A stretch of DNA of 64,000 nucleotides from an uncultured Bdellovibrionales bacterium. Lineage in GTDB: Bacteria; Bdellovibrionota_C; UBA2361; JBGSMV01. The notes under the pieces were generated by a model. It saw only the letters and a list, made by a program, of their open reading frames with translations, made no database searches and was not told the origin of the DNA. The stretch's first letter is position 1. Each line of letters begins with the position of its first letter. Both the position numbers and the translations under genes were made by a program. Below are positions 17,747 through 34,335 of this stretch, in pieces. Where the stretch lies: assembly GCA_964631745.1 (NCBI GenBank), contig CAZVWV010000002.1:999-64998 (forward strand), given 5' to 3'.

Positions 17747-18626
17747 ATGACAGTGAAAGCGTTTTGCGCGGAGCGCAAGCTCAATTACTATACGTTTAAG
17801 GGCTGGCAGAGAGTGTTTAGCCGAGAGGGAGTAGAGCAGTTTCGCGAGTTGGCACCCACGCCAAATGCGGAGGCTAGCTACGCTGTAGTGTTAGCCAACG
17901 GCCGGGAGCTTAAAGTAAGCGCTGGATTTTCGATTACATCTAGGGGGCCAGGGGAACGGTACCAATTCTGGTCAACCACCGATCCGGTCGGCACTTTTGT
18001 TAGAGCCCATATACGAGGCGCAGCTAGCCTCGGCGCTCAACGAGTTCTTTGAAGCAAAGCAGTATGAACCGGAACTAAGTGATAGGGCGCTGGAGTATAT
18101 CCGCCGACTTTACGATATCGAGGAAGTGGTTAAAGATGCCTCTTTGGAAGAGAGGCTAAAGGCCCGGGACCGACATTCCCGTCCGATAGTGGATGAGTTT
18201 TTTAACTGGCTGCGGGCTGAGCAGCTGACCAAGGCGCTTTTACCATCTAATGCATTTCTCAAAGCTGCCAGTCACGCGCTTCGCGCCGAAGCAGAGCTAC
18301 GCGTATTTTTGGGCGACCCGGCGGTTCCCATCGATAACAACAAGCTTGAACGTACCTTACGACCTATCCCTATGGGGCGCAAAAACTGGATGTTTTGTTG
18401 GACTGAGGTTGGCGCCAAGGTGGTGGCCATAGTGCAATCCTTAGTGGCAGCGTGCCGGTTGCATGGCGTGCGACCGTTCGATTATTTCGTAGACGTGCTG
18501 CAGCGTGTAGACTCCACCCCCATGGCTAAGGTGGCAGAGCTTACGCCACGGCTTTGGGCGGCGGAGTGGAATTCTAAAAAATTGGAAAATTCGCCTGCGC
18601 AATAACGCGCCTCAGTGACCGCTTAC
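17747..18626 (+). mobile_element. IS66-family remnant. A short tnpA-like ORF (17747..18052) is fused or adjacent to the C-terminal ~200 aa of tnpC (17997..18605), ending in the terminal repeat CGCTTAC at 18620..18626. tnpB and the N-terminal half of tnpC are deleted.
   Basis: HTH-like FCAERKLNYYTFKGWQR and ...VVLANGRELKVSAGF resemble IS66 TnpA. 18049..18622 is about 97% identical to the reverse complement of 4590..5163. Confidence 0.75.
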
Positions 18627-18833: not shown

Positions 18834-20306
18834 CTACATCCCACCCACAGCCACTTCAGCCAGCCGATACAGCCCTGATGGGAACAGCCCAAAATACACG
18901 ACCCCAAAGGCGCAGAGCGCCATTGAGAGCTTTATTAGTGCGTTTGGCCCGATTGAGGATTGGAGGGTGCGGGATTCTTCGTCGCCTTCTATGAAGTACA
19001 TGGCTACGATTACTCGGAGGTAGTAGTAGCAGGAGACGGCGGAGCTTAGGATGCCTAGGATGGCTAGGCCGGGGTAGCCGGCTTTTACTACGGCGCTGAA
19101 GACGTAGACTTTGCCCATTAGGCCGGCCATGCCGGGGGGCAGGCCTGCTAGGGAAAGTAGGAATAGGGTGAAGAGTGCGGCTAGGAGGGGTTGGGTTGTG
19201 CTTAGGCCGTTAAAGCGTGAGAGGTTATCTGCGTGGCGCTCGGATGAGAATCTGCTGCTTATGGCTATTAGGGCGCCGAATGCGCCCATGGTCATTAGGG
19301 TGTAAGAGACTAGGTAATAGAGCGCGCCGGGGCCGCCGCCGAAGTCGTTCGTGGGGGCAAGCAGGGCCATTAGAACGTAGCCTGCGTGGGCTATGCTGGA
19401 ATATGCCAGCATGCGTTTAACACTTCGTTGTCTTAGGGCGATTAGGTTTCCTATTACCATGGTTAGTAGCGCCAGGGTCCAGACTAGGCCGGACCATTGG
19501 GTGAAGTAGGCTCCAAAGCCGGTCCAGATAACTCTGAATGCGGCCGCAAAAGCTGATGCTTTAATGGCGCAGGCCATGAAGGCTGTTACGGGGGTTGGCG
19601 CGCCTTGGTAGACATCGGGCGCCCAGTAGTGAAACGGAACGGCTCCAATTTTGAAGGCCAACCCGATGATTATCAGTCCTAGTCCTATTAGGGAGAGAGT
19701 TTGATCGCCTTTGATAATTAGCTCGCCGATTATGGCTATATCGGTGCTGCCGGTTACTCCGTATAGAATGGCTATACCAAATAAGAGAAAGGCTGAACTA
19801 AAGGAGCCTAGAAAGAAATATTTTAGGGCGGCTTCAGAGGAAACTTTGCGATCGTAGGCGGCCCCGCAAAGGCAGTAGAGCGCCATCGACATAATCTCAA
19901 GCGCCAGGAATAACATAATAAGCTCAGCGGAGGTGGCAAACCAGATCGCACCGGCTGTGGCCATCAGATACAGCGCGTAGTATTCGGCTGTGGACTCTAT
20001 GCCCTCGTCTCTTAACTTATTGAGTCCTAGTAAAATTCCAAAAAGTGATCCGGCTAGAATTAATACCGTTACAAAGAGCGCGTACGGGTCGGCGAATATA
20101 AATCCTTGGAAGATTCGGGAACCGGCTTGAAAGCCGGAGAGGTTAAAGGCGCAAGCGACAAGTGAGAGCACCACTATGTTACCGGCGAAAGCTCCGCGTG
20201 CCCACTCTGCTTTCGAAAATACATCTATCAAGAGAAGCAGCATTGCCCCTATGCAAAGTATGATGGGGGCGGCTCCTAATGAGAGCTCACTTAGTAGCGC
20301 ATTCAT
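18834..20306 (-). CDS. nuoN: NADH-quinone oxidoreductase subunit N
   Basis: 490 aa, 14-TM antiporter-like subunit, last gene of the nuo operon. Confidence 0.9.
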   Translation of the reverse strand: MNALLSELSLGAAPIILCIGAMLLLLIDVFSKAEWARGAFAGNIVVLSLVACAFNLSGFQAGSRIFQGFIFADPYALFVTVLILAGSLFGILLGLNKLRDEGIESTAEYYALYLMATAGAIWFATSAELIMLFLALEIMSMALYCLCGAAYDRKVSSEAALKYFFLGSFSSAFLLFGIAILYGVTGSTDIAIIGELIIKGDQTLSLIGLGLIIIGLAFKIGAVPFHYWAPDVYQGAPTPVTAFMACAIKASAFAAAFRVIWTGFGAYFTQWSGLVWTLALLTMVIGNLIALRQRSVKRMLAYSSIAHAGYVLMALLAPTNDFGGGPGALYYLVSYTLMTMGAFGALIAISSRFSSERHADNLSRFNGLSTTQPLLAALFTLFLLSLAGLPPGMAGLMGKVYVFSAVVKAGYPGLAILGILSSAVSCYYYLRVIVAMYFIEGDEESRTLQSSIGPNALIKLSMALCAFGVVYFGLFPSGLYRLAEVAVGGM

Positions 20307-20307
20307 C

Positions 20308-21912
20308 TTAAATACCCCTCAATGAAAGTTTTTGTTGCTGAATGATAGCACTCACGTCTACGTTCGATTGGCGCTCGGCGTACCGCTTCTCGCCACTTTG
20401 GACCAACATTACCCGGCGCGCCTCGACTGATGAAATATAGGCGCTGATTGTGGGCTCCATGCGCGCGAAAAATGGCCCGGGGAAGAGTCCCATAACGAAG
20501 ACCAAGACAAGCAGCGGGGCGAAAAAGGCCAGTTCCGTGGGCGTCACGTCTTTCAAGTCACCGTTTTTCTTCTCATCAATCTCGCCGTACATGGTGCGCA
20601 TATAAAGGGTAAGCATATAAATAGCGCCAAGCACCACACCGGCGCAGGCTATGATTGTAAGCACTGGCAGTGTCTTAAAACTTCCGATAAGAATTGCAAA
20701 TTCCCCTACGAAGCCATTGGTGAGCGGCAGGGCGATGGAGCTTAAGGTAAATACTAAGAAAAGGAATGCAAAAATCGGGATGCGAGATGCCAGTCCACCG
20801 TATTCGGAGATCTCTCTGGTGTGGCGGCGATCGTATAGCACTCCGACTAAGAGGAAGAGCGCGCCGGTTGAGATGCCGTGGTTTAACATCTGATAGATTG
20901 AACCAGCGGTGGAGACCACGTTAAAGGCCACAAAACCAAGCACACAGTACCCAAGATGCGAAACAGAAGAATATGCCACAAGTTTTTTGATGTCGTGCTG
21001 GGCCCAGGCCACTAGCGCGCCAAATACCACGCCGATAACGGCGAGTGTTCCGATGTATGGCGCATAGACTTCAGCAGCCCGCGGGAAGAGCGGATAAGCA
21101 AAGCGGATAAATCCGTACAGGCCCATCTTTAATAGAACCCCCGCCAGCACAACCGAGCCGCCCGTGGGGGCTTCAACGTGCGCGTCCGGAAGCCAGGTGT
21201 GGAACGGAAATATGGGGACCTTAATTCCAAAGGCCAAGGCGAAGGCGCCAAAGAGCCAGAGCTCTTCTTTTAAGGTTAGGTTTGAACTTAGAAGAAGTTT
21301 TTCTAAATCAAATGTTAGCTGCCCATTCGAAGCCTCGTAGTACTTCCAGACGGTGTACATCAGAGCTACCAACATCAGCACTGAGCCAAAGACTGTATAA
21401 AGCACAAACTTCAAAGTGGCGTATATTTTTCGTTTGCCTCCCCAAACCCCGATGATGAAATACATGGGGGCCAGCATCAGCTCCCAAAATACGTAGAACA
21501 GGAACATATCTAGGGCTAAAAGCGTGCCGAGCATGGCGGTCTCAAGCACTAACATACTGGCGAGATAGCCACGCACCTTTTTCTCAACTGAACCGGAGGC
21601 CATTACGATGAGCGGCATTAGAAAAGTCGTGAGAAGCACTAAGAAGATACTGATGCCGTCAACTCCGAGCGCATACCCGATTCCAAAACCGGGGATCCAT
21701 TCTTTGCGCTCAACTAACTGGTATGTCGAAAGCGCGCCGTCAAATTGGCGCAGCACCAGGAGCGATACAAAGAATGTAAACAGCGTGGCAGTCAGCGCCA
21801 CGGCTCTAACACTCTTACCGTCGCGGTCGCAGCTTGGCCCGCAAAAAGGAAGCAGGTAGAGCGCCAGCGCCCCAAGCAGCGGAGTAAAAATTGTCCAGGA
21901 GAGAAGTCCCAT
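20308..21912 (-). CDS. nuoM: NADH-quinone oxidoreductase subunit M
   Basis: 534 aa antiporter-like subunit with conserved FPFHTWLPDAH. Confidence 0.9.
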   Translation of the reverse strand: MGLLSWTIFTPLLGALALYLLPFCGPSCDRDGKSVRAVALTATLFTFFVSLLVLRQFDGALSTYQLVERKEWIPGFGIGYALGVDGISIFLVLLTTFLMPLIVMASGSVEKKVRGYLASMLVLETAMLGTLLALDMFLFYVFWELMLAPMYFIIGVWGGKRKIYATLKFVLYTVFGSVLMLVALMYTVWKYYEASNGQLTFDLEKLLLSSNLTLKEELWLFGAFALAFGIKVPIFPFHTWLPDAHVEAPTGGSVVLAGVLLKMGLYGFIRFAYPLFPRAAEVYAPYIGTLAVIGVVFGALVAWAQHDIKKLVAYSSVSHLGYCVLGFVAFNVVSTAGSIYQMLNHGISTGALFLLVGVLYDRRHTREISEYGGLASRIPIFAFLFLVFTLSSIALPLTNGFVGEFAILIGSFKTLPVLTIIACAGVVLGAIYMLTLYMRTMYGEIDEKKNGDLKDVTPTELAFFAPLLVLVFVMGLFPGPFFARMEPTISAYISSVEARRVMLVQSGEKRYAERQSNVDVSAIIQQQKLSLRGI

Positions 21913-21918
21913 ATCTTC

Positions 21919-23805
21919 CTACAGTACTAAATAAAACAGCACAAAAAACACCGTGAAAGCAAAAATGCTGAGCGTGTAAAAACGGAGCTGGCCGGTGTTA
22001 GTTACTTGGCGAACTTCGCCGGAGATATCTATAAACTGCGCTGAGCCGTTTACTATTCCATCAATCAGCCCCTGGTCGATAATCTTCCAGAGAAATTTTG
22101 CGAAACCTTCAAGGGGCCGCACAATTAGGGAGCCATAAATCTCATCGAGGTAATATTTGTGCGAGAAGAGATTCCCAATTGGGTAAAGGGCGTTGTAGAT
22201 CTTTGCGGGCAGGCTCTTAAGTTGGGTATATAACACTAAGCCAAGTGCCAGCCCGAGCAAGCCGATCCAGGAATGCATTATGGCTTCAAGTATGCTCTCT
22301 GAATGGTGGGCGATCTGGCCCAAGGGAATAATATTTGCCAGGTAGTGTTCCAGTGAATATGCATGAGTTTGAAGCACTAGCCCGCCGAAGGCTCCGAGTA
22401 TCGCCAACACAATTAGAGGTACTGTCATGGCCCAAGGGGATTCATGCGGGTGCGCGTGTCCTCGGTAGCTTCCAAGAAAGGTCATTGCAAATGAGCGCGT
22501 CATATAAAATGCCGTGAGGAAGGCTGTGAAATTTACGAGCATTAAGATTGAGCCCATGGCGCTCGCTAGAATAGGATTGTGGGCGTGTTCAAGCGCCGCC
22601 AAAATTGCATGCTTCGATTGATACCCCGAAAAGAAAAATATTCCTGCGATCGCCAGAACTGACACGCCATAAGTAGCGCAGGTGATGGGCATCTTTTTCC
22701 AAAGTCCGCCCATATGGCGCATGTCCTGTTCGTGATGACAGCCGTGGATTACCGATCCGGCCCCTAGGAAGAGGCAGGCCTTAAAGAATGCATGTGTTAC
22801 CACATGAAAAATCGCCACCCAATATGCGCCGACCGCCGCTGCCATAAACATAAATCCAAGCTGGCTTACGGTTGAGTAGGCCAGCACTTTCTTAATGTCG
22901 TTCTGGGCTAAGGCTGTTGTGGCGGCAACGAATGCGGTAGAGACAGCCACTATCAAAATCACCGCGCCAGCTACTTCCGAAAGCGCGAAGATAAAATTAA
23001 GGCGCGCTAGCATATATACACCGGCGGTCACCATAGTAGCGGCGTGAATCAGGGCGGATACCGGCGTTGGCCCGGCCATGGCATCGGGCAGCCACACAAA
23101 TAAGGGTATCTGGGCGCTTTTGCCGCAGGCGCCCACAAAGAGGCAGAGTGCTACGGTTGTAAAAAACGGTGTAGCCAAGCCACTTAGGTTGACCGCTTCT
23201 TGGAGTTCGCGAAAATCCAGAGTGCCGAACTGACTCCAAAGTATAAATACGCCAAACAGGAATCCCGCGTCGCCGATTCGATTAACGACGAAGGCTTTGC
23301 GCCCGGCGGCAGCGTAGCTAATGTTTTTAAACCAAAAGCCAATCAGTAGGTACGAGCAGAGCCCCACCCCTTCCCAGCCGACAAAGAGCACTAAGAGGTT
23401 AGCGCCTAGCACCAGGCAGAGCATCGCAAACATAAAGAGATTCAGATACGAAAAGAATCTGTGCACGGACGGGTCTTCCGCCATGTAGGCTGTGGAATAC
23501 AGGTGGATTAAACTTCCCACGCCCGTGACTACCAAACACATTACGGCTGAGAGTTGATCCAGACGCAGAGTAAAGTTTGCCGAGAGGCCGCCGATGTTAA
23601 TCCAGTTAAAGAGCGTTTGCTCAAATACTCCATCTTCCGGGAGGAGCAACACCTGTTTAACGGTCCAAAAGAACGCCAGAAACGATGCGGCCGTTGCAAT
23701 GATCCCGGCAATTTTATGCTGCTGTCTTCCCACTATGAAGGCTAACAGCGAGCCAACCAGCGGTAAAAGCGGTATTAGTCCAAGCTGTGCTGAAACTGGT
23801 GTCAT
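21919..23805 (-). CDS. nuoL: NADH-quinone oxidoreductase subunit L
   Basis: 628 aa, with the long C-terminal amphipathic helix extension typical of NuoL. WLPDAMAGPTPVSALIHAATMV. Confidence 0.9.
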   Translation of the reverse strand: MTPVSAQLGLIPLLPLVGSLLAFIVGRQQHKIAGIIATAASFLAFFWTVKQVLLLPEDGVFEQTLFNWINIGGLSANFTLRLDQLSAVMCLVVTGVGSLIHLYSTAYMAEDPSVHRFFSYLNLFMFAMLCLVLGANLLVLFVGWEGVGLCSYLLIGFWFKNISYAAAGRKAFVVNRIGDAGFLFGVFILWSQFGTLDFRELQEAVNLSGLATPFFTTVALCLFVGACGKSAQIPLFVWLPDAMAGPTPVSALIHAATMVTAGVYMLARLNFIFALSEVAGAVILIVAVSTAFVAATTALAQNDIKKVLAYSTVSQLGFMFMAAAVGAYWVAIFHVVTHAFFKACLFLGAGSVIHGCHHEQDMRHMGGLWKKMPITCATYGVSVLAIAGIFFFSGYQSKHAILAALEHAHNPILASAMGSILMLVNFTAFLTAFYMTRSFAMTFLGSYRGHAHPHESPWAMTVPLIVLAILGAFGGLVLQTHAYSLEHYLANIIPLGQIAHHSESILEAIMHSWIGLLGLALGLVLYTQLKSLPAKIYNALYPIGNLFSHKYYLDEIYGSLIVRPLEGFAKFLWKIIDQGLIDGIVNGSAQFIDISGEVRQVTNTGQLRFYTLSIFAFTVFFVLFYLVL

Positions 23806-23810
23806 ATTTA

Positions 23811-24113
23811 TTATAGCTTTAGCTCCGTAGCGCTTGAAGTCTCAATGCTCTGATTATTTCTAAACAATGAAAGAATTATAGCCAAGCCAACAGCCGCCTC
23901 GGCCGCGGCCACTACCATCACAAAGAATACAGCCATCTGGCCGGTTAGGTTGCCGTGCATTCTTGAAAAGGCCACAAAAACCAGGTTGACGGCGTTTAGC
24001 ATCAGCTCTAAGCACATGAACACCACAATCGCGTTGCGCCGCACAATCACGCCTATGGCGCCGATGGTGAACATGATCGTGGCCAAAACTAAATATTGTG
24101 TTACCGGTACCAC
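23811..24113 (-). CDS. nuoK: NADH-quinone oxidoreductase subunit K
   Basis: 100 aa, 3 TM helices. [18 protein letters not shown]. Confidence 0.9.
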
Positions 24114-24115
24114 AA

Positions 24116-24613
24116 TTAGCGCTCCCTGTATTTTCGTTTAGACAACATTATCGCCCCTACTACCGCCACCATAATCAGCACGGAAGCAGCCTCGAAGGGG
24201 AAGACGTACTTGGTGTAAAGCTCCCGGCCCATGGCTGCTACGCTGCCTTGTAGCGCCGCGCTTGGCATGGCCGTGGTGATTCCGAACTCAAAGTGCTGGC
24301 CTACAGTAAATAAGAATATAATTCCTAGGAAAACTGCCGCCAAAAAATACGGGATATTAATGGCATTACCCAGCGGTTCAATCTTTACGTTTAAAAGCAT
24401 TAGCACGAACATCACAAGCACCATGATGGCGCCTGCGTAAACTATGATTTGCACGACTGCCAAAAAATGTGCGTCCAAAGTCGCAAAGAGCGCTGCTACT
24501 GTCACAAGATTTAGCACTAATGATAAGCCGCTATAGATCGGGTTTTTAAAAGCCACGACCATCACGGCGGTCACAATCAGCACAATCGATAAGAGGTAAA
24601 ATCCAATTTCCAT
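24116..24613 (-). CDS. nuoJ: NADH-quinone oxidoreductase subunit J
   Basis: 165 aa membrane subunit. It lies 4 nt downstream of nuoH, with no nuoI between them. Confidence 0.85.
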
Positions 24614-24617
24614 ATCA

Positions 24618-25709
24618 CTAAACCGTGGGTAGTACTCCCAAAAGCTTTAGCGCGCCGTAAAGCATCAGATTGACCAAACTAAGCGGCAAAAGAATCTTCC
24701 AACCTAAATTCATAAGTTGATCGAAGCGAAATCTTGGGAGTGTCCAACGGATAACTATTTGTAGAACGCAAAAGAAGATTACTTTGGTCATTAAGATTGC
24801 AAAGCCAACCAGCGCGCCGAGCCAACTTCCGGCCGCGAAGGTGAGAAATGGAAGGTGCCAGCCGCCGAAGAAAAGCACTGTGATCAAGAACGAGAAGAGC
24901 GCAATTTCGCCGAATTCGCCTAACCAAAAGAGCAAAAACTTCATGCCTGAGTATTCAGTGAAGTATCCGGCCGCAAGCTCCGACTCGCTCTCGGGAAGGT
25001 CAAAGGGGGCGCGCTTGGTCTCGGCCATGCCGACTGTAAAGAGAATGAGAAAGGTAAGCGGCTGATAGAAGACGCCCCACAAACTCGACTGAGCATCGAC
25101 CATCTTATAGAGATCCAGGGTGCCATAAACCACGATGGTGGTTACAAAGGCGATGCCCATAGCGAGTTCGTATGAGATCATTTGAGCGGCGGCGCGCAGG
25201 CCTCCAAGTAGAGAAAACTTATTGTTGCCGGTCCAGCCCGCCAAGGCCACGCCGTATACCGAAATTGAGCCCATGGCGAACAGGAACAACACGCCCGCGT
25301 CAATTGGCGCAATCTGGGTGGTGATTTGGTAGCCAAAGAGTTCGAAGTTGGGCGCCATGGGCATGACCGCATACGCCACAAAAATCGGGAAGACCGCTAA
25401 GAAGGGACCTAAGCAATGCACGAAATTAGAAACGCCTTCCGGTATGAAATCCTCTTTCATTATGGCTTTGACGGCATCGTTCACTAAGGTGTTAATAATG
25501 CCGAGGCCGCCCATGATACGGATAAAGAAAAAGAGGGGCTTTAGAATAAAGATATCAGTTTCGATGTAAGCGGCTGCGCGGTTTGCGCCGATTCGATCTT
25601 GAATTAACGCTGAGCCCTTACGCTCAATCCAGGTGCAAAATGCCGCAAGGTGCAGTGCCACTATAAAAAGCACGAAGATAACTTTAACGATGAGTATTAC
25701 TAGCTCCAT
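24618..25709 (-). CDS. nuoH: NADH-quinone oxidoreductase subunit H
   Basis: 363 aa, ND1 family. RAPFDLPESESELAAGYFTEYSGMKF. Confidence 0.9.
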   Translation of the reverse strand: MELVILIVKVIFVLFIVALHLAAFCTWIERKGSALIQDRIGANRAAAYIETDIFILKPLFFFIRIMGGLGIINTLVNDAVKAIMKEDFIPEGVSNFVHCLGPFLAVFPIFVAYAVMPMAPNFELFGYQITTQIAPIDAGVLFLFAMGSISVYGVALAGWTGNNKFSLLGGLRAAAQMISYELAMGIAFVTTIVVYGTLDLYKMVDAQSSLWGVFYQPLTFLILFTVGMAETKRAPFDLPESESELAAGYFTEYSGMKFLLFWLGEFGEIALFSFLITVLFFGGWHLPFLTFAAGSWLGALVGFAILMTKVIFFCVLQIVIRWTLPRFRFDQLMNLGWKILLPLSLVNLMLYGALKLLGVLPTV

Positions 25710-27358
25710 GCGGCGGCTCCCTCAGAAGCGCTGGAATTCGCGCCGGGTTTGTAAGTGTTGAGGCATACTCCGCCGTTTTTAATATTGCGTATGGTTAAGC
25801 CTGCCAGCGCCGGAGTGTTTCGGAGAAGCTCTAGCGTTAACTCTCTATCATTTTGCGGCTGCGCCAACTTGGCGCCGGCGCGCTCTGACAACCGGCAAAG
25901 TATGCGCCAGTCCGGCTCAGAGCCTTCCGGAAAGTCTCTAACTTTGTCGGTGTATTGGAGCCGCATCTTCTGATTTACTAGCAATCCGGATTTTTCGAGG
26001 ATGCTGCGGGAAGGGAAAGTGACCTTCGCCTCTGAAGCCAAAACTGATTTGGCATCCATAACTAACGCTACGCTTTGATCCAGTTTGGAGATAACATTTT
26101 TTAAATCCGGCAGATCGTTTGGGAGGACCGATCGATCCCCGACAAAAAGCGCAGACTTGAATTGGCCGTTTTTCAGATTTGAAATGGCTTCGCGGTAACT
26201 CTGCCCGGGAGTACCAGTTTCTAGACCAGCAAACTCTGCACCTCTAAAATTGGCGGCGTAATCGGGGCTGACAAGAATTTTTTCGACTGCGCTCAGTTCC
26301 CGTTCAGAGTAAGCCACTACAACCTTATAGTTCTTTACTGCTTTTTCTAGGAACTGTTTTAAGATCCAATATTCCTCAAGCAGAAGATCTGGCGAAGCGA
26401 AACAGACAAGCGGTAAGTGCTGTGTCAATTTCTGAGCTTCAGCCAGGGCCTGGTCCCAAGAGGTCTCATGGCCATGCAAACGCGGGGCAGTTAATCTATC
26501 TTTTGGAAGAAAGCGCTCAAAGCCGTACCGCCCTTCGTCGCAAAGCCACTCTTTGTTGACATGCGCGTTGTAACGGGCCTTCACCGTTACAATCTCTCCG
26601 TCTCGCTCGGCCACTTTGACGTTACATCCGGTTGAACAACCGGGGCAAATTGCATCAGTCTGCTTGGTAAACCAAATTCTAGTGTTGAAGCGCCAATCGC
26701 GGTGCGTGAGCGCTCCCACAGGGCATAAATCTACAACCGTACCCGAAAGCGCGTTGTCGAGGGGTTTATCGGGATTTACGGTAATCATGGATCGGTCGCC
26801 GCGGTTTATCATGCCGATCTCATGCGTCTCGGTAATTTCGTCGCAAAAGCGCACGCAGCGTGTGCACATAATGCAGCGCTCGCCGTCTAAGATAACGTGG
26901 GGGCCAAGCTCTTCGGCTTTGACTTTATGCACCTTCTCTTCCATGAAGCGGCTGGGGTTGGCGTTGTATTCGAAGTGATAATCTTGAAGCTTACAGTGCC
27001 CGGCCTGGTCGCAAACAGTGCAGTCCAGCGGATGATTAATCAGAATCATCTCCAAGGTACTTTCCTGTGCGGCCTTTACTTCAGGGCTAGTGTGATGCGT
27101 GGAAACTTTCATGCCTTCGGTAACCTGTGCGTGGCAGGCAACTGCGAGCTTTGGCGCACCTTCGACTTTGACTTGGCACATGCGGCAATTGGCGGGCACG
27201 GAGAGATCCTGGTGGTAACAATAATAAGGGATGTCTATACTGGCGGCTGCGGCGGCCTTAATAATATTAGAGCCCTTTGTAACGCTTACGCTTTTCCCAT
27301 CGATCGTGAGCGTCACCATTTCGGGAGCTTTGCCGGAGCCGTTGCCGTTACCACTCAT
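25700..27358 (-). CDS. nuoG: NADH-quinone oxidoreductase subunit G (75-kDa subunit, short form)
   Basis: 552 aa. N-terminal 2Fe-2S (CRMCQV), a His-ligated 4Fe-4S (HPLDCTVCDQAGHC), CIMCTRCVRFC, and a truncated molybdopterin-like domain. Confidence 0.85.
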   Translation of the reverse strand: MSGNGNGSGKAPEMVTLTIDGKSVSVTKGSNIIKAAAAASIDIPYYCYHQDLSVPANCRMCQVKVEGAPKLAVACHAQVTEGMKVSTHHTSPEVKAAQESTLEMILINHPLDCTVCDQAGHCKLQDYHFEYNANPSRFMEEKVHKVKAEELGPHVILDGERCIMCTRCVRFCDEITETHEIGMINRGDRSMITVNPDKPLDNALSGTVVDLCPVGALTHRDWRFNTRIWFTKQTDAICPGCSTGCNVKVAERDGEIVTVKARYNAHVNKEWLCDEGRYGFERFLPKDRLTAPRLHGHETSWDQALAEAQKLTQHLPLVCFASPDLLLEEYWILKQFLEKAVKNYKVVVAYSERELSAVEKILVSPDYAANFRGAEFAGLETGTPGQSYREAISNLKNGQFKSALFVGDRSVLPNDLPDLKNVISKLDQSVALVMDAKSVLASEAKVTFPSRSILEKSGLLVNQKMRLQYTDKVRDFPEGSEPDWRILCRLSERAGAKLAQPQNDRELTLELLRNTPALAGLTIRNIKNGGVCLNTYKPGANSSASEGAAAWS

Positions 27359-28671
27359 CAGTGCGCCCCTTCATAAACGATATTTAAAAAATCACGGTGC
27401 GGAATCTTCCCGGTAGCGGATTCTATGATTCGCTCCTTAAATTCTTCCGAGAATTTTCGGATGATACTGACATATGGCAGCACCATAGTGTCGCCGAAGG
27501 CGCAGATGGTGTGCCCGCCAATCTGACTGCATACGTTTTCGATCAGCGCTAAGTCGCCGGGCATCCCCATACCGCGTGAGATGCGGGTGACGATCTTCTC
27601 GATCCAATGCCCACCCTCGCGACACGGCGTACACTGCCCGCAAGATTCATGCGAGTAGAATCTGGTAAGATTTAAGAGCGCCTCGACCATGTCGGTGGTG
27701 TCATCAAGCACCATGAAACCGGCGCAGCCAAGCGAGGAACCGGCGTTCTTCAAAGAGTCGTAATCCATGGTTAGTCCATCGATCTCGTCGCCACGTAAAA
27801 CTCCGACAGATGATCCACCGGGAATCAGACATTTTAGTTTTCGTCCGTTCCAGATGCCACCCAGTTCATCTTCTATGAATTGGCGCACAGGGTACCCCAT
27901 TTCAATCTCGTAGATGCCGGGCTTATTAATATGGCCGGAGGCGGAGACTAGCTTCGTGCCTGCGGAGTTCTTAACGCCGATCTTTGAGTAGGCAGCGCCG
28001 CCGTTTTCCATAATCCAGGGTACGTTTGCGAGAGTTTCGACGTTGTTAATAACAGTCGGACAGTTCATAAAGCCTGAAACCGCCGGGAAAGGAGGCTTCA
28101 TGCGGGGTTGCCCTTTCTTTCCCTCTAAAGAATTTAGTAGCGCGCTTTCTTCGCCGCAGATGTAAGCGCCAGCGCCGCGATGGATCACCATCTCATGATT
28201 AAAGCCAGAGCCGAAAATATTCTTACCGAGATACCCCGCAGCATAAGCTTCATCGATAGCTGCTTTGGTACGGGCGTAGGGGTAGCCGTATTCGCCGCGC
28301 ACGTAAATGCAAGACCAGTTACTTTGAAGCGCCCAGGCTGCAATCAACATGCCCTCAATCAAGAGATGCGGATCGTTTTCCATCAGCAATCGATCTTTGA
28401 AGGTGCCCGGCTCACTTTCGTCGGCGTTACAGATTAAGTATACGGGCTTCCCGGAATTGCGCGGAACGAAGCTCCACTTCATCCCCATTGGGAACCCGGC
28501 ACCGCCGCGACCACGCAGATTTGAACTTTTTACCTCTTCGATCACTTTCAGAGGATCCATAGCCAGCGCTTTTCTTACATTTTTATAGGCGCCCCGGCTC
28601 TCTGCACCTTGCAAAGTGTGCTGATTAGGCTCACGAATGTTTTTAAGTAGTATTTGTAAATGCTGTGCCAC
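27358..28671 (-). CDS. nuoF: NADH-quinone oxidoreductase subunit F (51-kDa, FMN and NADH binding)
   Basis: GRGGAGFPMGMKW FMN/NADH motif and C-terminal 4Fe-4S cysteines (ESCGQCTPCREG). Confidence 0.9.
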   Translation of the reverse strand: MAQHLQILLKNIREPNQHTLQGAESRGAYKNVRKALAMDPLKVIEEVKSSNLRGRGGAGFPMGMKWSFVPRNSGKPVYLICNADESEPGTFKDRLLMENDPHLLIEGMLIAAWALQSNWSCIYVRGEYGYPYARTKAAIDEAYAAGYLGKNIFGSGFNHEMVIHRGAGAYICGEESALLNSLEGKKGQPRMKPPFPAVSGFMNCPTVINNVETLANVPWIMENGGAAYSKIGVKNSAGTKLVSASGHINKPGIYEIEMGYPVRQFIEDELGGIWNGRKLKCLIPGGSSVGVLRGDEIDGLTMDYDSLKNAGSSLGCAGFMVLDDTTDMVEALLNLTRFYSHESCGQCTPCREGGHWIEKIVTRISRGMGMPGDLALIENVCSQIGGHTICAFGDTMVLPYVSIIRKFSEEFKERIIESATGKIPHRDFLNIVYEGAH

Positions 28672-28689
28672 TGTATCTACTTCAATCTG

Positions 28690-29253
28690 TTAGCCTAAAA
28701 CCTGCGATTTTGAGTAGCCCTTTAAGCCCTCGCCTAATTTATCTTCAATCATCGATAAACTTAAGTTAGGTTTATCCTTTTGAATTTGGTCTACGATCTT
28801 TAAGAGCTCCGCCGCTGTCAGCTTCTCAAAGAAGCAATCATTTACCTGGCACATCGGAGCAGTTCCACATGAGCCCAAACACTCGACCTCTTCGAAGCTG
28901 AACATTCCATCTGGGGTGACTTCCCGGGGCCTTGTGCCAAATTTATGGGCAAGCGCCTCAGAGAGTTTCTTTGAGCCGCGAACCGCACAGGAAAGTGTGC
29001 GGCACACCTGAAAATGATATTTGCCCAGGGGCTTTTGGCGATACATGGAATAGAAGCTGATAAGCTCTTGCACGTGCACGGGGGCAAGTCCTGCTTTTTC
29101 AGATACCCAAGCCACAGCTCTTTCGTCAAGGCAGCCCAGCTCTTCCTGCACTATATATAGTGCCACCATAGCCGCGGATTGCTTACTTGGATAGAGGGCT
29201 TTGACATCCTCAATTCTCTTTTCGGCTTTATCTGAAAGCTTCATCTGTCGCAC
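28690..29253 (-). CDS. nuoE: NADH-quinone oxidoreductase subunit E (24-kDa, 2Fe-2S)
   Basis: CRTLSC...CLGSCGTAPMCQVND thioredoxin-like 2Fe-2S motif. Confidence 0.85.
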   Translation of the reverse strand: MRQMKLSDKAEKRIEDVKALYPSKQSAAMVALYIVQEELGCLDERAVAWVSEKAGLAPVHVQELISFYSMYRQKPLGKYHFQVCRTLSCAVRGSKKLSEALAHKFGTRPREVTPDGMFSFEEVECLGSCGTAPMCQVNDCFFEKLTAAELLKIVDQIQKDKPNLSLSMIEDKLGEGLKGYSKSQVLG

Positions 29254-30518
29254 TCCCCGCCGATCATATTAATCATGCCAAAAATCGGAACGATATCGGC
29301 AATAGAGTGCCCCAAAAGCATCTTGCGCATGGCCCCCATATGAATAAAAGATGGCGCGCGCACATGCACTTTATAAGGGTGGCCGGAGCCGTCTGAGACG
29401 GTGTAAAATCCGAGCTCGCCATTACCCCCCTCGACCGGCATATAGACATCGCCGACCGGGGGTTTAATGCCGTACATTACCATTTCAAAATGGTTAATCA
29501 TTCCGTCGATTGAATTGTAAACCTGTTCCTTGGGAACTAGTGTTATGTGGGGATCGTCTACAGAGATGGGGCCGCCGGGCAGATGTTTCAAGGCTTGCTC
29601 ACAGATGCGCATCGACTGCTCAGCTTCTTGGAACCTCACCAAAAAGCGATCGTAGTTGTCCCCCTTTGAGCCAAGCGGCACGGTGAATTCAAAGTCTTCG
29701 TAGCTTGAATAAGGGAAGGCTTTGCGCACGTCGTAATTTAGGCCGGAGGCGCGTCCCATAGGGCCGGTTAGAGAGTAATCAATCGCTTCCTGCTTAGAAA
29801 CTTTGGCCACGTCGCACATGCGGTCCATGAAGATTCTGTTTCTGGTAAGGAGCCTATCGCAGTCGGAGAGAATCTTGCGAGTTTGTTTAAATGCCTGAGC
29901 CATCTTTTCGCCAAAGCCGTCGGGCAGATCGTAACGTAGGCCCCCTACTCTGCCGTAGGAAATTGTGAGGCGTGCCCCGGTGACGTCCTCGATAAGCTCC
30001 CAGAGCAGCTCTCTAGCTTCAATCATGTATAACATGACGGTAAAGGCACCGAGTTCCATGGCAGAGGCGCCGAGACAGGTAAGGTGATCTGAAACGCGCG
30101 AGATCTCAGACATAATCACGCGAATATATTGGCACCGTCTTGGAACTTCGATTCCTAAAAGCTTTTCGATCGTGAGGCACCAGCCCACGTTGTTGATTAT
30201 GGGAGAAACATAATTTAGGCGATCAGCGTACGGCATGACTTGGTTGTAGTCGACCGTCTCGCACATTTTTTCGAAGCCGCGGTGCAGATAACCGACTTCG
30301 ACGTCGGCGTCGATGATGCGTTCCCCGACTAACTCGGCGACCACCCGCACAGTGCCGTGTGTGGCGGGATGGGCCGGTCCGAAGTTTAAGATCATGCTCT
30401 CCGAGTGCAGATCGTCTCCCAATTTGTGAGAGCGCATGTGGGTAGTGACGCCGCCAGCGCCGTAATCTACGTTTAGAAGCTCTTTATCGGGAACGGCCGA
30501 ATAATTAGACTCACTCAT
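29241..30518 (-). CDS. nuoD: NADH-quinone oxidoreductase subunit D (49-kDa)
   Basis: 425 aa. NFGPAHPATHG and the C-terminal RAPSF.HMGAM motifs of the NiFe-hydrogenase-like 49-kDa subunit. Confidence 0.9.
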   Translation of the reverse strand: MSESNYSAVPDKELLNVDYGAGGVTTHMRSHKLGDDLHSESMILNFGPAHPATHGTVRVVAELVGERIIDADVEVGYLHRGFEKMCETVDYNQVMPYADRLNYVSPIINNVGWCLTIEKLLGIEVPRRCQYIRVIMSEISRVSDHLTCLGASAMELGAFTVMLYMIEARELLWELIEDVTGARLTISYGRVGGLRYDLPDGFGEKMAQAFKQTRKILSDCDRLLTRNRIFMDRMCDVAKVSKQEAIDYSLTGPMGRASGLNYDVRKAFPYSSYEDFEFTVPLGSKGDNYDRFLVRFQEAEQSMRICEQALKHLPGGPISVDDPHITLVPKEQVYNSIDGMINHFEMVMYGIKPPVGDVYMPVEGGNGELGFYTVSDGSGHPYKVHVRAPSFIHMGAMRKMLLGHSIADIVPIFGMINMIGGECDR

Positions 30519-31177
30519 CGAGCAGCCTCCCTGTGATGCACTCCTAAATTCTGCTGCGGCTTATCTGTAGTCTCGGTAGATGTTTGCCCGGAAACTTTTC
30601 TTGAAATTTGAACCAATTCCGGCCGCAGCATCTTTCGTGCCGTGTTTTCAACTTCAGGTGCTCGGAGTTTTACGCGCGGCTGCTTGGCCTGCACTGGGTA
30701 GTCCTTTCGCAGTGGATAACCCTTGAACTCATCATACATAAGTATGCGCCTTAGGTCTGGGTGGTTACGGAATTGGATGCCGTACATATCCCAAACTTCG
30801 CGTTCCATAAAATTCGCGCTGGACCAAAGCGGCACTAGGCTTTCGATCTCTGATTCTTGCTCCGGCAGATCGAGTTTCACCCGCAAACGGTGTAGTTTTG
30901 TGGTGCTAAGCAGGTGGTAAACAAGCTCGAAACGATGCTCACGAGCGTCCATCCAATCAACAGCGGTGACACTTAGCAAAAGATCGAAATCAAGTTCGGC
31001 ATCAAGCTTTAAGAGTCTAAATAAATCGATGGCGTTCTGCGGGCTGATGCGAACTACAACGTCGCCGAGACTTAGATCAGCCTCTAAAAGTTGGCTGCCA
31101 AGCTTTGCCTTTAATAAGGCTAAAAGCTCCTGATTTCTAACCGGTTCTTTTTCCATAAGGACTACGATTGGGCGCAC
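30515..31177 (-). CDS. nuoC: NADH-quinone oxidoreductase subunit C (30-kDa)
   Basis: 220 aa with conserved EREVWDMYGI.F..HPDLRRIL. It is the first gene of the operon; nuoA and nuoB are not upstream. Confidence 0.85.
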   Translation of the reverse strand: MRPIVVLMEKEPVRNQELLALLKAKLGSQLLEADLSLGDVVVRISPQNAIDLFRLLKLDAELDFDLLLSVTAVDWMDAREHRFELVYHLLSTTKLHRLRVKLDLPEQESEIESLVPLWSSANFMEREVWDMYGIQFRNHPDLRRILMYDEFKGYPLRKDYPVQAKQPRVKLRAPEVENTARKMLRPELVQISRKVSGQTSTETTDKPQQNLGVHHREAAR

Positions 31178-31329
31178 ACTTCCGTGTGTACTGCAAAAAC
31201 TCCTAATTTGGCACGCAAAACGATACTCGCACTGTTGGTTTTATCGAATGCGCCTCTGCCTTGCAAGCTACTAAGGCGGTTGAGGTTCATGGCTTGCGTT
31301 AGAACATAAGAATTATATAGTGCTCCCCC

Positions 31330-33315
31330 ATGATTTCAGAGGAAGAAAAGAGCCTTATCAGCAAGGAAGAGGAAATTCTTAAAACGACGATTGATTCTTT
31401 GGCTTCGCAACAAAAGCACGGGTTTGGGCGGCTAGGAGCGGAGAATATACGTGCTCGAACGTTGACGGCTGAGCTAGTGCTCACGAGACGGGCTGAGGAC
31501 AAGCAGCTTTTGGCGTCGGACGAAGCAGTTTCACATGCCTTAATTGGAAAGAAGAAAGAGGAGCTTAAGAACATCGACCTGCTTCTAAAAAACCCGTATT
31601 TCGCGCGTTTTGAGGTGCAAGAGATACCGTCCCGGGGCGGTAGTAGTGTTGGCGAGGCGCGAAAGATTGAGTACAAGCTCGGATTTGTGGCCAATCCGGA
31701 CTGCCGCATCATGGATTGGCGCAAGGCGCCTATCTCAAAGCTTTATTACGAGTATAAGGAAGGTGACGAATATTTTGAGGAGATCCAGGGGCGAGAGCGT
31801 GAGGGCACTATAACGTTAAGGCATGCGCTGGAGATCTCGGCCGGTGCGTTGACCAAAGTTAGTGGCGCCAAGGGAACCTTCGTTAAGAAGGGCGAGGTTT
31901 GGGAGAAACGCGGCGAGGCTGGCGGCGATGAACATCAGAGCGGCACTCTGCCACATATCCTTAGCCTTATTACCCCCGAGCAGTTCAAAACCATTTCGGA
32001 AGAATCAACCATTCCGTTATTGATTCAGGGCGTAGCGGGCTCGGGCAAGACCACCGTGGCTCTGCATCGCTTGGCGTGGTTGCTGCATGAGGAAAACTCT
32101 GCCCTGCTTTCGTCTGAGTGTTTGGTGTTGGTGTTAAGTCAAACATTGAAGCGATACATCACAGGCTTGTTGCCTGCGGTTGGCGCGCCTGAAGTAAAGA
32201 TTCAAACCTTTGCCGAGTGGGCGGCGGAAACAATTTCGCATTTTATGCCTGCATTCTGCGGTGAAGATGGAAGGCTACAAGTGCTTAATATTGAGCCTCC
32301 GCTTGGCGTGCAACGCGTTAAGACCAGCATGGCGCTCCTAAGGATGCTTGAGAGCGAGCGTGACATTGCGGATCCTTACGACCTCTTAATTAGATGCTTG
32401 TCAAATTATCGCCAATTAATTGAATTGGATGAAACCAAGCTTTTAGATCGCGAGGTGATCGATGCTGCCCTAAGCCGCACCATCAGCAATCGGGAGCAGG
32501 CAACTCTCGAAGCGTGCGATCTGGCGTTTTTCATGCGTGCGCTTGAGCTAAGGGAGAAACAGATATTTCTTCCTGACAAAAAAACTGGGCATCTTGGGCA
32601 TTTAGTGGCAGACGAAGTTCAGGACATGAGCGCGCTTGAGCTTGCTTGTATTTTCGGGGGAGTCAAAAAATCCGGAAGTGTGACCTTGGTGGGTGACACC
32701 TCTCAGGCCCTCTCCGGAAAGCAGTTTGTTGGCTGGGAGAAACTGCGAAGCTATTGGGGGCTTAAGGATTCACTTTCCAGATTTATCACCTTGGATGTTA
32801 GTCACCGCTCAACGCAACAGATCATGCGCTTTGCCAACTACGTGCAAGGCAATCAGTCCAAGGCACAAGGCAGGGAGGGTCGCCCGCCGATTCTCTTCAA
32901 ATGCGCAGGTCATCAAGCAGCCTTAAGTGCCGCCATGAATTGGTTGAACGAAGCCATGAAACGGTATCCAAACGCCCTCACTTGTGTAATTTGCGGGACT
33001 TCCCAACAGGCCAAGGAGTTGCATGGGCTCTTGGAACCAACCTTCGGTGCGGCGTTGAGAATCGGCCAGACCGAGGACTTTAGCTTTGAAGAAGGCATTG
33101 TGATTGCGCCACTACAGGTGGTGCGGGGCTTAGAGTTTGTAAACGTGCTGATTTGGGAACCGGATTCAAAGTTCTTCCCGGCCGATGAGCACGGGCGGAA
33201 TTTATTTTACACCGCAGCCACCAGGGCCTCGCAGAATTTGTGTATGGTGGCGAGTAAGGCTTTGAGCGCACTAATGCCAAGAGAGGAGAGTCGCTTGATG
33301 CGGGTGGTGGCGTGA
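31330..33315 (+). CDS. helD: HelD-like (helicase IV class) UvrD-family helicase that would associate with RNA polymerase
   Basis: The N-terminal domain motif RIMDWRKAPISKLYYEYKEGDEY matches B. subtilis HelD ([23 protein letters not shown]). Walker A LLIQGVAGSGKTTVALHRLAWLL and a C-terminal UvrD-like 2A domain. Confidence 0.7.
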   Translation: MISEEEKSLISKEEEILKTTIDSLASQQKHGFGRLGAENIRARTLTAELVLTRRAEDKQLLASDEAVSHALIGKKKEELKNIDLLLKNPYFARFEVQEIPSRGGSSVGEARKIEYKLGFVANPDCRIMDWRKAPISKLYYEYKEGDEYFEEIQGREREGTITLRHALEISAGALTKVSGAKGTFVKKGEVWEKRGEAGGDEHQSGTLPHILSLITPEQFKTISEESTIPLLIQGVAGSGKTTVALHRLAWLLHEENSALLSSECLVLVLSQTLKRYITGLLPAVGAPEVKIQTFAEWAAETISHFMPAFCGEDGRLQVLNIEPPLGVQRVKTSMALLRMLESERDIADPYDLLIRCLSNYRQLIELDETKLLDREVIDAALSRTISNREQATLEACDLAFFMRALELREKQIFLPDKKTGHLGHLVADEVQDMSALELACIFGGVKKSGSVTLVGDTSQALSGKQFVGWEKLRSYWGLKDSLSRFITLDVSHRSTQQIMRFANYVQGNQSKAQGREGRPPILFKCAGHQAALSAAMNWLNEAMKRYPNALTCVICGTSQQAKELHGLLEPTFGAALRIGQTEDFSFEEGIVIAPLQVVRGLEFVNVLIWEPDSKFFPADEHGRNLFYTAATRASQNLCMVASKALSALMPREESRLMRVVA

Positions 33316-33372: not shown

Positions 33373-33789
33373 CTACAGGCCACAATACTTACCAATTTGC
33401 AGCGCGAAATCCCTAAAAACACACATTTCAGTCGTTATTTTTTCGAAAACCCTGCCCCATTCAATAGTCGCGTATCGATGCACTAACAAATTCCTAAACC
33501 CTACCGCTTTCGAAAGTTTCTCAGCCAGCGATTTTTCTATTATTCCCTTTCCGCCAAGCTCCAAGAATAGGCTTCCTGCCGACAAACCACCGAGATCATC
33601 AAGGTCTGAGGCAAGATGCGCAGCTATGTCGATACAGTTCTGTACCGCGCGCTCTAGGTTTACCGAAATGATGTCTTGGATATCAAGATCCACGAAAAGT
33701 CGGTCAGCCGACTCTGGCATCTTACTCTCAATTCGCGCCACGCAATTTCTTAGATTTTCTAACTTTTGTGCAACTAACTTTCTATCCAT
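33373..33789 (-). CDS. hepT: HepT-type HEPN toxin (DUF86)
   Basis: 138 aa. The R-x4-H HEPN motif RNLLVHRY. Overlaps the upstream MntA gene by 8 nt (ATGAATAA). Confidence 0.8.
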   Translation of the reverse strand: MDRKLVAQKLENLRNCVARIESKMPESADRLFVDLDIQDIISVNLERAVQNCIDIAAHLASDLDDLGGLSAGSLFLELGGKGIIEKSLAEKLSKAVGFRNLLVHRYATIEWGRVFEKITTEMCVFRDFALQIGKYCGL

Positions 33790-34192
33790 GAATAAACCTT
33801 TCGCGACGCGCTTTAAGTATCGACTCCCACAACGGAATGTAGTCTAGTCCTTCCATCAAACACCGGGAGATAAGATTACCATACAACTCAGAATTTCGAT
33901 TAATAAGCGTTACCCTGCAAGAGACGATCTGCTGCAGCAAGACTCCGGATGCTGCCCGAAGATCAATGAGATCGATTTCTTTATTGGTTTTTTGAGATAA
34001 GCGCTGCGCCAAGTTAAGACGTTCATCCATGGTGAGCGGATGTTTCATTGCCACTGCTATATCGATATCACTATGCGACGTGGCGCCCCCATTTGCATAC
34101 GACCCGAAGCAGATCGCCAGTTGAAGATTGGGGATCTCCGTTAGAGTGTTTTTGATTGTTTCCAACAGACTCGACAGTATTTTCTTGGGCAT
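33782..34192 (-). CDS. mntA: MntA-type minimal nucleotidyltransferase antitoxin
   Basis: The Pol-beta NTase motif GSYANGGATSHSDIDIAV (GS...SDxD). Confidence 0.8.
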   Translation of the reverse strand: MPKKILSSLLETIKNTLTEIPNLQLAICFGSYANGGATSHSDIDIAVAMKHPLTMDERLNLAQRLSQKTNKEIDLIDLRAASGVLLQQIVSCRVTLINRNSELYGNLISRCLMEGLDYIPLWESILKARRERFIHG

Positions 34193-34335
34193 AACTTCAG
34201 CCGAACTTAAAATTGGTACGATATCAGAGCATTATATACTACTCTAAAAGAGAGAGGAAGCTTCGCGCGCGGAAGCTCATGTACAAAAATCTCTCGATTT
34301 TCGCTCAGAGACCATGCGCAATTTTTCAGCTGCTG

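Follow-up and report, generated by a model that had tools for sequence, protein, structure and literature searches.

An eleven-gene nuo operon lacking nuoA, nuoB and nuoI in uncultured Bdellovibrionota, best read as part of a split complex I gene set

The locus described here raises the question of how a nuo operon that carries neither nuoA, nuoB nor nuoI may contribute to a working complex I. Within the window (i.e. the whole 64-kb stretch of DNA that was analysed, part of a 65,330-bp contig), eleven successive ORFs on the minus strand, spanning positions 18834–31177, were matched by Pfam and NCBIfam models in the order nuoC-D-E-F-G-H-J-K-L-M-N; all eleven are intact, being free of frameshifts and stops, and the ten junctions between them range from −13 to +18 nt. 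The operon opens with nuoC (30-kDa subunit; 30515..31177; PF00329, E=2e-43; TIGR01961 above cutoff), which encodes 220 aa from a GTG at 31177 or 213 aa from an ATG at 31156, the latter start being that of the gene call on a Logan contig. It is followed by nuoD (49-kDa subunit; 29241..30518; 425 aa; PF00346, E=2e-102; TIGR01962 and NF004739 above cutoff), nuoE (24-kDa subunit with the [2Fe-2S] cluster N1a; 28690..29253; 187 aa; PF01257, E=4e-45; TIGR01958 above cutoff), nuoF (51-kDa subunit with the FMN/NADH site and cluster N3; 27358..28671; 437 aa; PF01512 and PF10589; TIGR01959, 593 bits) and a short form of nuoG (25700..27358; 552 aa), the product of which matches PF13510, PF10588, PF22117, PF04879 and, partially, PF00384 and scores below the TIGR01973 cutoff. 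The gene nuoH (ND1; 24618..25709; 363 aa; PF00146, E=6e-98; PDB matches to NuoH/ND1/NdhA) overlaps nuoG by 10 nt, and is succeeded by nuoJ (ND6; 24116..24613; 165 aa; PF00499, E=2e-34), nuoK (ND4L; 23811..24113; 100 aa; PF00420, E=4e-29; NF004320 above cutoff), nuoL (ND5; 21919..23805; 628 aa; PF00361 and PF00662; NF005141, 704 bits), nuoM (ND4; 20308..21912; 534 aa; PF00361 and PF01059) and the operon's final gene, nuoN (ND2; 18834..20306; 490 aa; TIGR01770, 401 bits; PF00361). An IS66 transposase fragment is located 230 nt past nuoN.

In canonical operons nuoI is situated between nuoH and nuoJ. Direct reading of the sequence at this position revealed a spacer of 4 nt (tgat; 24614..24617, minus strand), flanked by the nuoH stop codon TAG at 24620–24618 and the nuoJ ATG at 24613. 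Upstream of nuoC lies a divergent intergenic region of 152 nt (31178..31329), after which a gene for a UvrD/HelD-like helicase (31330..33315, plus strand; 661 aa; PF00580, PF13245 and PF13538) is read in the opposite direction. The best minus-strand sigma-70-like site of the region, CTGAAA-16-TATAAT at 31339–31312, is a consensus match alone and no sign of function. The first-pass annotation had reported this gene order, the 4-nt gap without nuoI and the absence of nuoA and nuoB upstream of nuoC, and was borne out on each of these points; nor did the two intervals that it had singled out (24100–25710 and 31178–31329) contain an overlooked small ORF that could encode NuoI or NuoB.

The search for the three genes was then extended to the remainder of the window and to related loci. 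Six-frame motif scans of the entire 64 kb identified neither NuoB motifs nor the CxxCxxCxxxCP pair of NuoI, a NuoA motif scan of the window was likewise negative, and tblastn with E. coli, Thermus and bovine NuoA, NuoB and NuoI as queries returned noise alone at E<=1. Seeds closer to the clade were obtained by way of a representative search with NuoC, which led to a fused NuoCD protein (P0256) and from there, through a metagenome scan, to sequences of NuoA (36), NuoB (24) and NuoI (21) that belong to related complex I lineages. These gave no tblastn match at E<=0.01, and nuoA, nuoB and nuoI occur neither in the 64-kb window nor within 10 kb on each side of the cluster at 90 related loci (1.36 Mb), a sample in which some 20 kb of each relative's genome is visible. 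Of the membrane arm, H, J, K, L, M and N are present, while NuoA, a small and poorly conserved protein, was matched by none of the 36 related seeds in the window and flanks. A NuoB profile search was similarly unproductive: each of the best 120 matches listed shared 74% identity or more with a seed and none was on a known clade contig, a 10,710-bp contig of the clade read from end to end was without nuoB, and a scan of viral contigs with the profile yielded unrelated matches only. A look-up with the window's own NuoD and NuoH returned only Logan contigs of 3–4 kb. The clade's Nuo proteins score near or below the TIGR cutoffs. The possibility that a NuoB or NuoI domain is concealed by fusion within NuoC (220 aa), NuoD (425 aa), NuoH (363 aa) or NuoJ (165 aa) was dismissed since these proteins are too short and lack the Cys motifs.

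The arrangement is not confined to the window. The same C-D-E-F-G-H-J-K-L-M-N order is present in the closed 2.28-Mb genome CP129486.1 (GCA_030584005.1), where the cluster lies at 1.62–1.64 Mb, and in about 80 GTDB species representatives (Bdellovibrionota MAGs, abundant at freshwater sites) with a NuoH identity of 50–72%, and it recurs in contigs from JGI, ENA and Logan, so that the layout is ancient and kept under selection. In none of 82 related loci does nuoI stand between nuoH and nuoJ, the spacing of which ranges from −10 to +170 nt. The divergent helicase gene adjoins nuoC in loci L002, L004, L085, L088 and L089 and in at least 14 GTDB loci; relative to L004, the closest long contig, NuoD and NuoH are 85% and 84% identical, respectively, and the neighbouring helicase 52%. 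Gene relocation is demonstrably frequent in the clade: one sub-clade (e.g. JAYPVM01 and JBIIHQ01) lacks nuoF between nuoE and nuoG, one lineage carries H-J-K-L-M-N by itself and another G-H-J-K-L-M-N, and in two loci foreign genes have been inserted between nuoG and nuoH. An orphan nuoF was pursued as a lead to a satellite locus with nuoA, nuoB and nuoI by means of a profile search, a tree and three look-ups, all of which led to more in-cluster nuoF genes only; for the nuoF-less sub-clade, no orphan nuoF was detected among the best 120 NuoF matches listed.

The cofactor and quinone-site motifs of the encoded proteins were then assessed. NuoD possesses the quinone-site residues His54 (in GPAHPATHG) and Tyr103 (in DRLNY) in addition to HRGFEK, and these three motifs are invariant across 54 clade sequences. 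NuoF carries GAGAYICGEE together with Cys344, Cys347, Cys350 and Cys390, while NuoG retains the Cys sets for N1b, N5 and N4 and for an N7-type cluster. Every FMN and Fe-S ligand motif is retained in NuoE, NuoF and NuoG, giving a complete NADH-oxidising N-module. Residues 1–310 of NuoG align with solved 75-kDa subunits, and its C-terminal molybdopterin-like domain is reduced, with approximately 60 alignable aa. The first-pass annotation was correct in describing the 552-aa NuoG as a short form; judged from sequence comparison, this is not peculiar to the locus, as NuoG measures 526–575 aa in most clade members and some 490–540 aa in the sampled related complex I lineages. Overall, all eleven encoded subunits look fully canonical at the sequence level. 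A group 4 membrane-bound [NiFe] hydrogenase (Ech/Mbh/Hyf) was rejected as an identity for the locus, as NuoD ends in ...GGECDR, is devoid of the NiFe-binding Cys motifs (CxxC nickel ligands) and is matched by NiFe hydrogenase models at E~3e-4 only, its top models being NuoD equivalogs.

Taken together, it is very probable that this uncultured Bdellovibrionota lineage has a canonical complex I with its genes split between loci, the operon being the principal one. Since the His and Tyr residues of NuoD are invariant and the Fe-S and FMN motifs complete, a working NADH:quinone oxidoreductase would need NuoB (cluster N2) and NuoI (N6a/N6b) to be supplied from another locus; the conserved sites of NuoD, NuoF and NuoG make sense only if N2 delivers electrons. 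In the proposed scheme, a single translationally coupled operon would provide the NADH-oxidising module NuoE/F/G, half of the quinone module (NuoC/D) and, of the seven membrane subunits, all but NuoA (NuoH, J, K, L, M and N), while NuoB, NuoI and the small membrane subunit NuoA would be produced from one or more other chromosomal loci and would assemble with the products of the operon. Electrons would then pass from FMN through N3, N1b, N4, N5, N6a, N6b and N2 to quinone at the His/Tyr pair of NuoD. The first-pass annotation had argued that NuoB and NuoI are indispensable for electron transfer, reasoning that we judge to be sound, and that the missing genes must be encoded elsewhere. The latter remains the best reading in light of the conservation of the layout (about 80 species, one complete genome among them), the NuoD quinone residues, the cofactor motifs and published descriptions of split sets; as the sequence at hand represents only part of each genome, the existence and chromosomal location of the three genes are what we infer. 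Its other suggestion, that the module pairs with a different electron-input or output partner, finds no support, since all of the encoded subunits have a canonical appearance.

Such an arrangement has parallels within the phylum. Degli Esposti 2015 (PMC4758237) terms the nuo operon of Bdellovibrio 'split', with its genes in sub-clusters, and a 2026 comparison centred on Peredibacter starrii (PMC13147790) speaks of a 'split arrangement in other BALOs', both statements covering cultured Bdellovibrio-like organisms and not the uncultured lineage of the window; in these sets, as in ours, complex I genes are found outside one A-N operon. According to the latter work (PMC13147790), a nuoA-H-J-K-L-M-N cluster with nuoH beside nuoJ occurs in all Bdellovibrionota studied. 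This published cluster resembles the window's operon in that nuoJ directly follows nuoH without nuoI; it differs in that the window's nuoH is preceded by nuoC-G rather than nuoA, with eleven genes together and A, B and I alone missing. An HD100 transcriptome paper contained no nuo data. Further afield, the ndh genes of cyanobacterial and chloroplast NDH-1 are spread over several syntenic groups (PMC4758237), so that this complex I homologue is built from several loci as proposed for the enzyme of the window, although NDH-1 lacks NuoE/F/G and uses ferredoxin whereas the window's locus has a complete NADH module. Nuo11 of Campylobacter and Chlorobium and the archaeal Fpo are also encoded by fewer than 14 nuo genes; they lack E/F/G and keep A/B/I, the reverse of the cluster described here, and a partial 11-subunit complex I (Nuo11/NDH-1/Fpo) was discounted on that basis. 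In Rhodothermus marinus, Melo and colleagues reportedly found in 2005 that nqo1-7 and nqo10-14 form operons while nqo8 and nqo9 each stand on their own. Its complex I is said to be a functional, purified enzyme of the 14-subunit type for which the NuoI homologue Nqo9 is encoded apart from the main clusters, as envisaged here, while, in contrast to the window, NuoH is reportedly also separate and NuoA and NuoB are in the first operon.

Three other explanations for the missing genes were weighed. Since the window is MAG sequence and an IS66 transposase fragment lies close to nuoN, the gap might reflect mis-assembly or a chimeric contig, or else the operon might be a remnant decaying after a recent deletion peculiar to the strain. 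However, identical junctions were found in independent NCBI, JGI, ENA and Logan assemblies and in a closed genome, and the window's genes are free of frameshifts and stops with all motifs intact; the conservation of the layout across relatives refutes both an assembly accident and a recent deletion, and the probability left to this explanation is negligible. A special case of the three genes being encoded elsewhere, namely that a second nuo operon, complete or of the 11-subunit type, lends NuoA, NuoB and NuoI so that subunits are common to two isoenzymes, is unlikely but deserves somewhat more weight. A second cluster had already been proposed in the first-pass annotation, and two nuo clusters are reported for predatory Bdellovibrionota in the Peredibacter comparison cited above (PMC13147790); against this, complex I clades rarely mix subunits (Spero et al., PMC4453560), and the CP129486.1 genome is small. 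Nor did a second NuoD or NuoH of the clade appear among the best 120 matches listed per search, although lists of that depth could not have revealed one.

It might also be argued that these genomes encode neither NuoB nor NuoI. The eleven products would then make up either a non-canonical enzyme, in which unrelated Fe-S proteins connect NuoG with the quinone site or with some other acceptor, or a sub-complex that serves a different purpose. Neither NuoB nor NuoI was encountered in any clade sequence read (i.e. the window and the flanks of the 90 loci), and one sub-clade also has no nuoF in its cluster, with no orphan copy among the matches listed. These observations must be set against the limited span visible per genome and the invariance of the NuoD quinone-site residues. 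Moreover, we know of no NuoD homologue functioning without a NuoB partner; to our knowledge, each characterised member of the complex I/group-4 hydrogenase superfamily pairs the two. Erhardt and co-workers are said to have observed in 2012 that loss of single nuo genes in E. coli leaves complex I only partially assembled. True absence is accordingly regarded as improbable, and its strictest form, in which closed clade genomes hold no nuoB or nuoI at all and NuoCDEFGHJKLMN works without N2 and N6a/b, relying instead on an Fe-S carrier unrelated to them or on another acceptor, as slightly more improbable still.

The layout without A, B and I is real and conserved, and split nuo sets are already known from Bdellovibrio; an ordinary split gene set is the best reading of the layout, and the main present value of the finding is in annotation, as pathway-completeness tools would score complex I of this lineage as incomplete unless they looked outside the operon. 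For complex I evolution, the clade provides a well-sampled case, in about 80 species, of an ancient operon fragmenting while the enzyme is kept, to which the further relocation of nuoF and nuoC-G in sub-lineages adds. Should a closed genome nevertheless prove to lack both nuoB and nuoI, NuoD would for the first time be seen without its NuoB partner in a relative of complex I, overturning the NuoB-NuoD pair as the invariant core of the superfamily; only then would broader importance arise.

The related complex I lineage recovered from metagenome contigs is marked by the NuoD motifs DRLNY and ...NMIGGECDR/K and by a short NuoG, signatures that it shares with the window although the NuoD proteins are only 50–57% identical. 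Its gene order is very plastic, including full A-N operons, an A-B-C-D-G-H-I type without E/F and a peripheral-arm-only B-G-I-CD-EF type; unlike in the window's operon, nuoB and, where visible, nuoI are inside the cluster. The adjacent-Cys (CC) N2 motif of its NuoB reads FVTACCGME. At least one NuoB near the B-G-I-CD-EF type carries a Terriglobales (Acidobacteriota) label.

The 11 contiguous open reading frames at window positions 18834–31177 on the minus strand encode, in transcription order, NuoC (220 aa), NuoD (425 aa), NuoE (187 aa), NuoF (437 aa), NuoG (552 aa), NuoH (363 aa), NuoJ (165 aa), NuoK (100 aa), NuoL (628 aa), NuoM (534 aa) and, lastly, NuoN (490 aa), each assigned by Pfam and NCBIfam models, in agreement with the gene order proposed in the first-pass annotation. 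Neighbouring genes overlap by up to 13 nt or are separated by at most 18 nt, so that they form a single translationally coupled operon. The same annotation had found no place for nuoI, nor nuoA and nuoB upstream of nuoC, and both statements are borne out: only 4 nt separate the stop codon of nuoH from the start of nuoJ, with no nuoI between them, and nuoC is preceded by 152 nt harbouring the region's best sigma-70-like match (a putative promoter, by sequence match), beyond which lies a divergent gene for a UvrD/HelD-like helicase (661 aa). On the 3' side of nuoN, a truncated IS66 transposase gene is followed by polysaccharide-synthesis genes.

The best NuoD matches belong to uncultured "Oligoflexia", "Bdellovibrionota" and "Bdellovibrionales" MAGs, and the arrangement of the divergent helicase gene and nuoC-D-E-F-G-H-J-K-L-M-N recurs in the closed 2.28-Mb genome CP129486.1 and in a 286-kb JGI contig, with the same pattern on three further independent contigs reached through NuoF. 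A NuoH scan of one genome per GTDB species returned at least 80 loci, all from MAGs of the same phylum (NuoH identity 50–72%); nuoJ directly follows nuoH in every locus that has both (spacing −10 to +170 nt), and none of the loci of this clade carries nuoA or nuoB upstream of nuoC. Judged from these comparisons, the layout lacking nuoA, nuoB and nuoI is old and stably inherited, and such recurrence across related genomes and contigs rules out mis-assembly or a recent deletion as the cause of the gap. Between the window and the closest long contig (L004), identity reaches 85% for NuoD and 84% for NuoH but only 52% for the adjoining helicase, indicating strong purifying selection. The cluster is a real, conserved and well-formed complex I operon.

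Within the clade, a monophyletic and mostly freshwater sub-clade (L027–L038, L044–L049, L053–L059, L061–L064 and L015/L017) also lacks nuoF, which encodes the FMN/NADH subunit, from the operon, so that nuoE adjoins nuoG, as in L030:5776–16966, where C-D-E-G-H-J-K-L-M-N lies between ileS and rpsL-rpsG-fusA; no orphan nuoF was present among the best 120 NuoF matches. Elsewhere, H-J-K-L-M-N stands alone behind an aminotransferase gene (L070:9995–17378), G-H-J-K-L-M-N stands alone with degenerate L/M/N-like genes (L083:5927–13083), and two foreign minus-strand genes, one of them glycosyltransferase-like, separate nuoG from nuoH (L060:8185–9707 and L065).

The absence of a hidden small nuoI or nuoB frame, as claimed from the sequence beforehand, was upheld by a six-frame scan of the whole 64 kb, in which neither a CxxCxxCxxxCP motif nor NuoB motifs were detected and the sole looser CxxCxxCxxxC match was the N4 site of NuoG. 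A NuoA motif scan of the window was equally negative, while tblastn of the window yielded only noise with E. coli, Thermus and bovine NuoA/B/I queries, and no match at E≤0.01 with 81 NuoA/B/I sequences of the most similar complex I lineages. Fusion of NuoB or NuoI to another window protein was ruled out, as all are too short or lack the cysteines. In relatives' genomes, read to 10 kb around the cluster, no NuoA/B/I-like sequence was found in the clade loci scanned. The clade's NuoB was recovered neither by looking for an orphan nuoF that might mark a satellite locus (among the NuoF matches listed) nor by a NuoB profile search with out-group seeds, whose best 120 matches were all close relatives of the seeds.

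To our knowledge, in every solved complex I electrons pass from NuoG N4/N5 to N6a and N6b (NuoI), then N2 (NuoB) and quinone, which is reached at conserved NuoD His and Tyr residues. NuoD of the window retains the HRGFEK motif as well as the two residues that bind quinone, His (in GPAHPATHG) and Tyr (in DRLNY), and the three motifs are unchanged in 54 clade sequences; the protein is about equidistant from its mitochondrial, Aquifex, Thermus and Paracoccus homologues (approximately 50% identity to each). In NuoF, the FMN/NADH motif is present together with all four cysteines of N3, and NuoG carries every ligand of N1b, N5, N4 and an N7-type cluster. The strict conservation of the NuoD site argues that NuoB and NuoI are present in the cell. 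Their true absence from the closed genomes of the clade, the sole reading that, if true, would make the cluster remarkable, is considered highly improbable, while nuoA, nuoB and nuoI are very probably encoded elsewhere, having presumably been relocated out of the operon long ago. The cluster is an uncultured-branch case of the split nuo organisation already known from Bdellovibrio, the case with which Degli Esposti (2015; PMC4758237) illustrates an operon "separated in different sub-clusters". A nuoA-H-J-K-L-M-N cluster, in which H adjoins J with no I, is described in PMC13147790 for all examined Bdellovibrionota, predatory and non-predatory. Partial nuo operons are widespread, and subunit mixing between complex I clades is rare (Spero et al., 2015; PMC4453560).

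The N-terminal region of NuoH (residues ~1–70; window 25500–25709) is divergent, and alignments with solved NuoH/ND1 chains and with NCBIfam models begin only at residue ~61–69. Some 30 additional, mostly hydrophobic residues (AAYIETDIFILKPLFFFIRIMGGLGIIN) separate its ...DRIGANR motif from ...AVKAIMKEDF, and L060 and L070 show similar segments.

The nearest out-group in the representative search has a fused NuoCD (P0256) sharing the DRLNY and ...NMIGGECDR signatures. On metagenome contigs, this wider lineage displays full A-N operons, A-B-C-D-G-H-I clusters without E/F, or peripheral-arm-only B-G-I-CD-EF clusters. The 552-aa NuoG of the window is indeed a short form, as first noted, but its length is typical: clade NuoG proteins are mostly 526–575 aa and those examined from the out-group (L091, L111 and L163) ~490–540 aa, making shortness a family trait rather than a peculiarity of this locus. 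In L091:7185–13541, nuoB, a short nuoG, nuoI, fused nuoCD and fused nuoEF lie together, so that the complex I genes are cleanly divided and those for the peripheral arm stand by themselves, with no membrane-subunit genes found within 10 kb on contigs of this type (also L093, L094, L100, L103, L105, L107 and L161); at least one NuoB near this type is labelled Terriglobales (Acidobacteriota).

NuoB homologues were also observed on IMG/VR contigs. On the 9.3-kb L172 (2166–3393), ndhK-like (NuoB) and ndhI-like (NuoI) genes are adjacent, amid content that appears cyanophage-like by eye from translations (PstS-like, high-light-inducible protein, gnd-like and plastocyanin-like genes). L171 (9947–10492) and L175 (same position), large contigs of 233 and 295 kb with 32% GC, carry a lone 181-aa homologue that has a CC N2-type motif; its neighbours are genes of unknown function, and no further nuo gene lies within 10 kb.

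The IS66-family ORF (window 17997–18605, plus strand), ~230 nt past the nuoN end, matches the C-terminal element but, in the Pfam DDE model, only positions 159–284, and is the trace of an earlier insertion at the 3' border of the operon; it was not seen in relatives whose flanks were inspected. Upstream of the helicase gene, a small toxin-antitoxin or defence-type cluster (window 33782–35495, minus strand) comprises genes for a Pol-beta-type nucleotidyltransferase (33782–34192), an AbiEii-like nucleotidyltransferase toxin (34336–35109) and a BrnA-type antitoxin (35100–35495).
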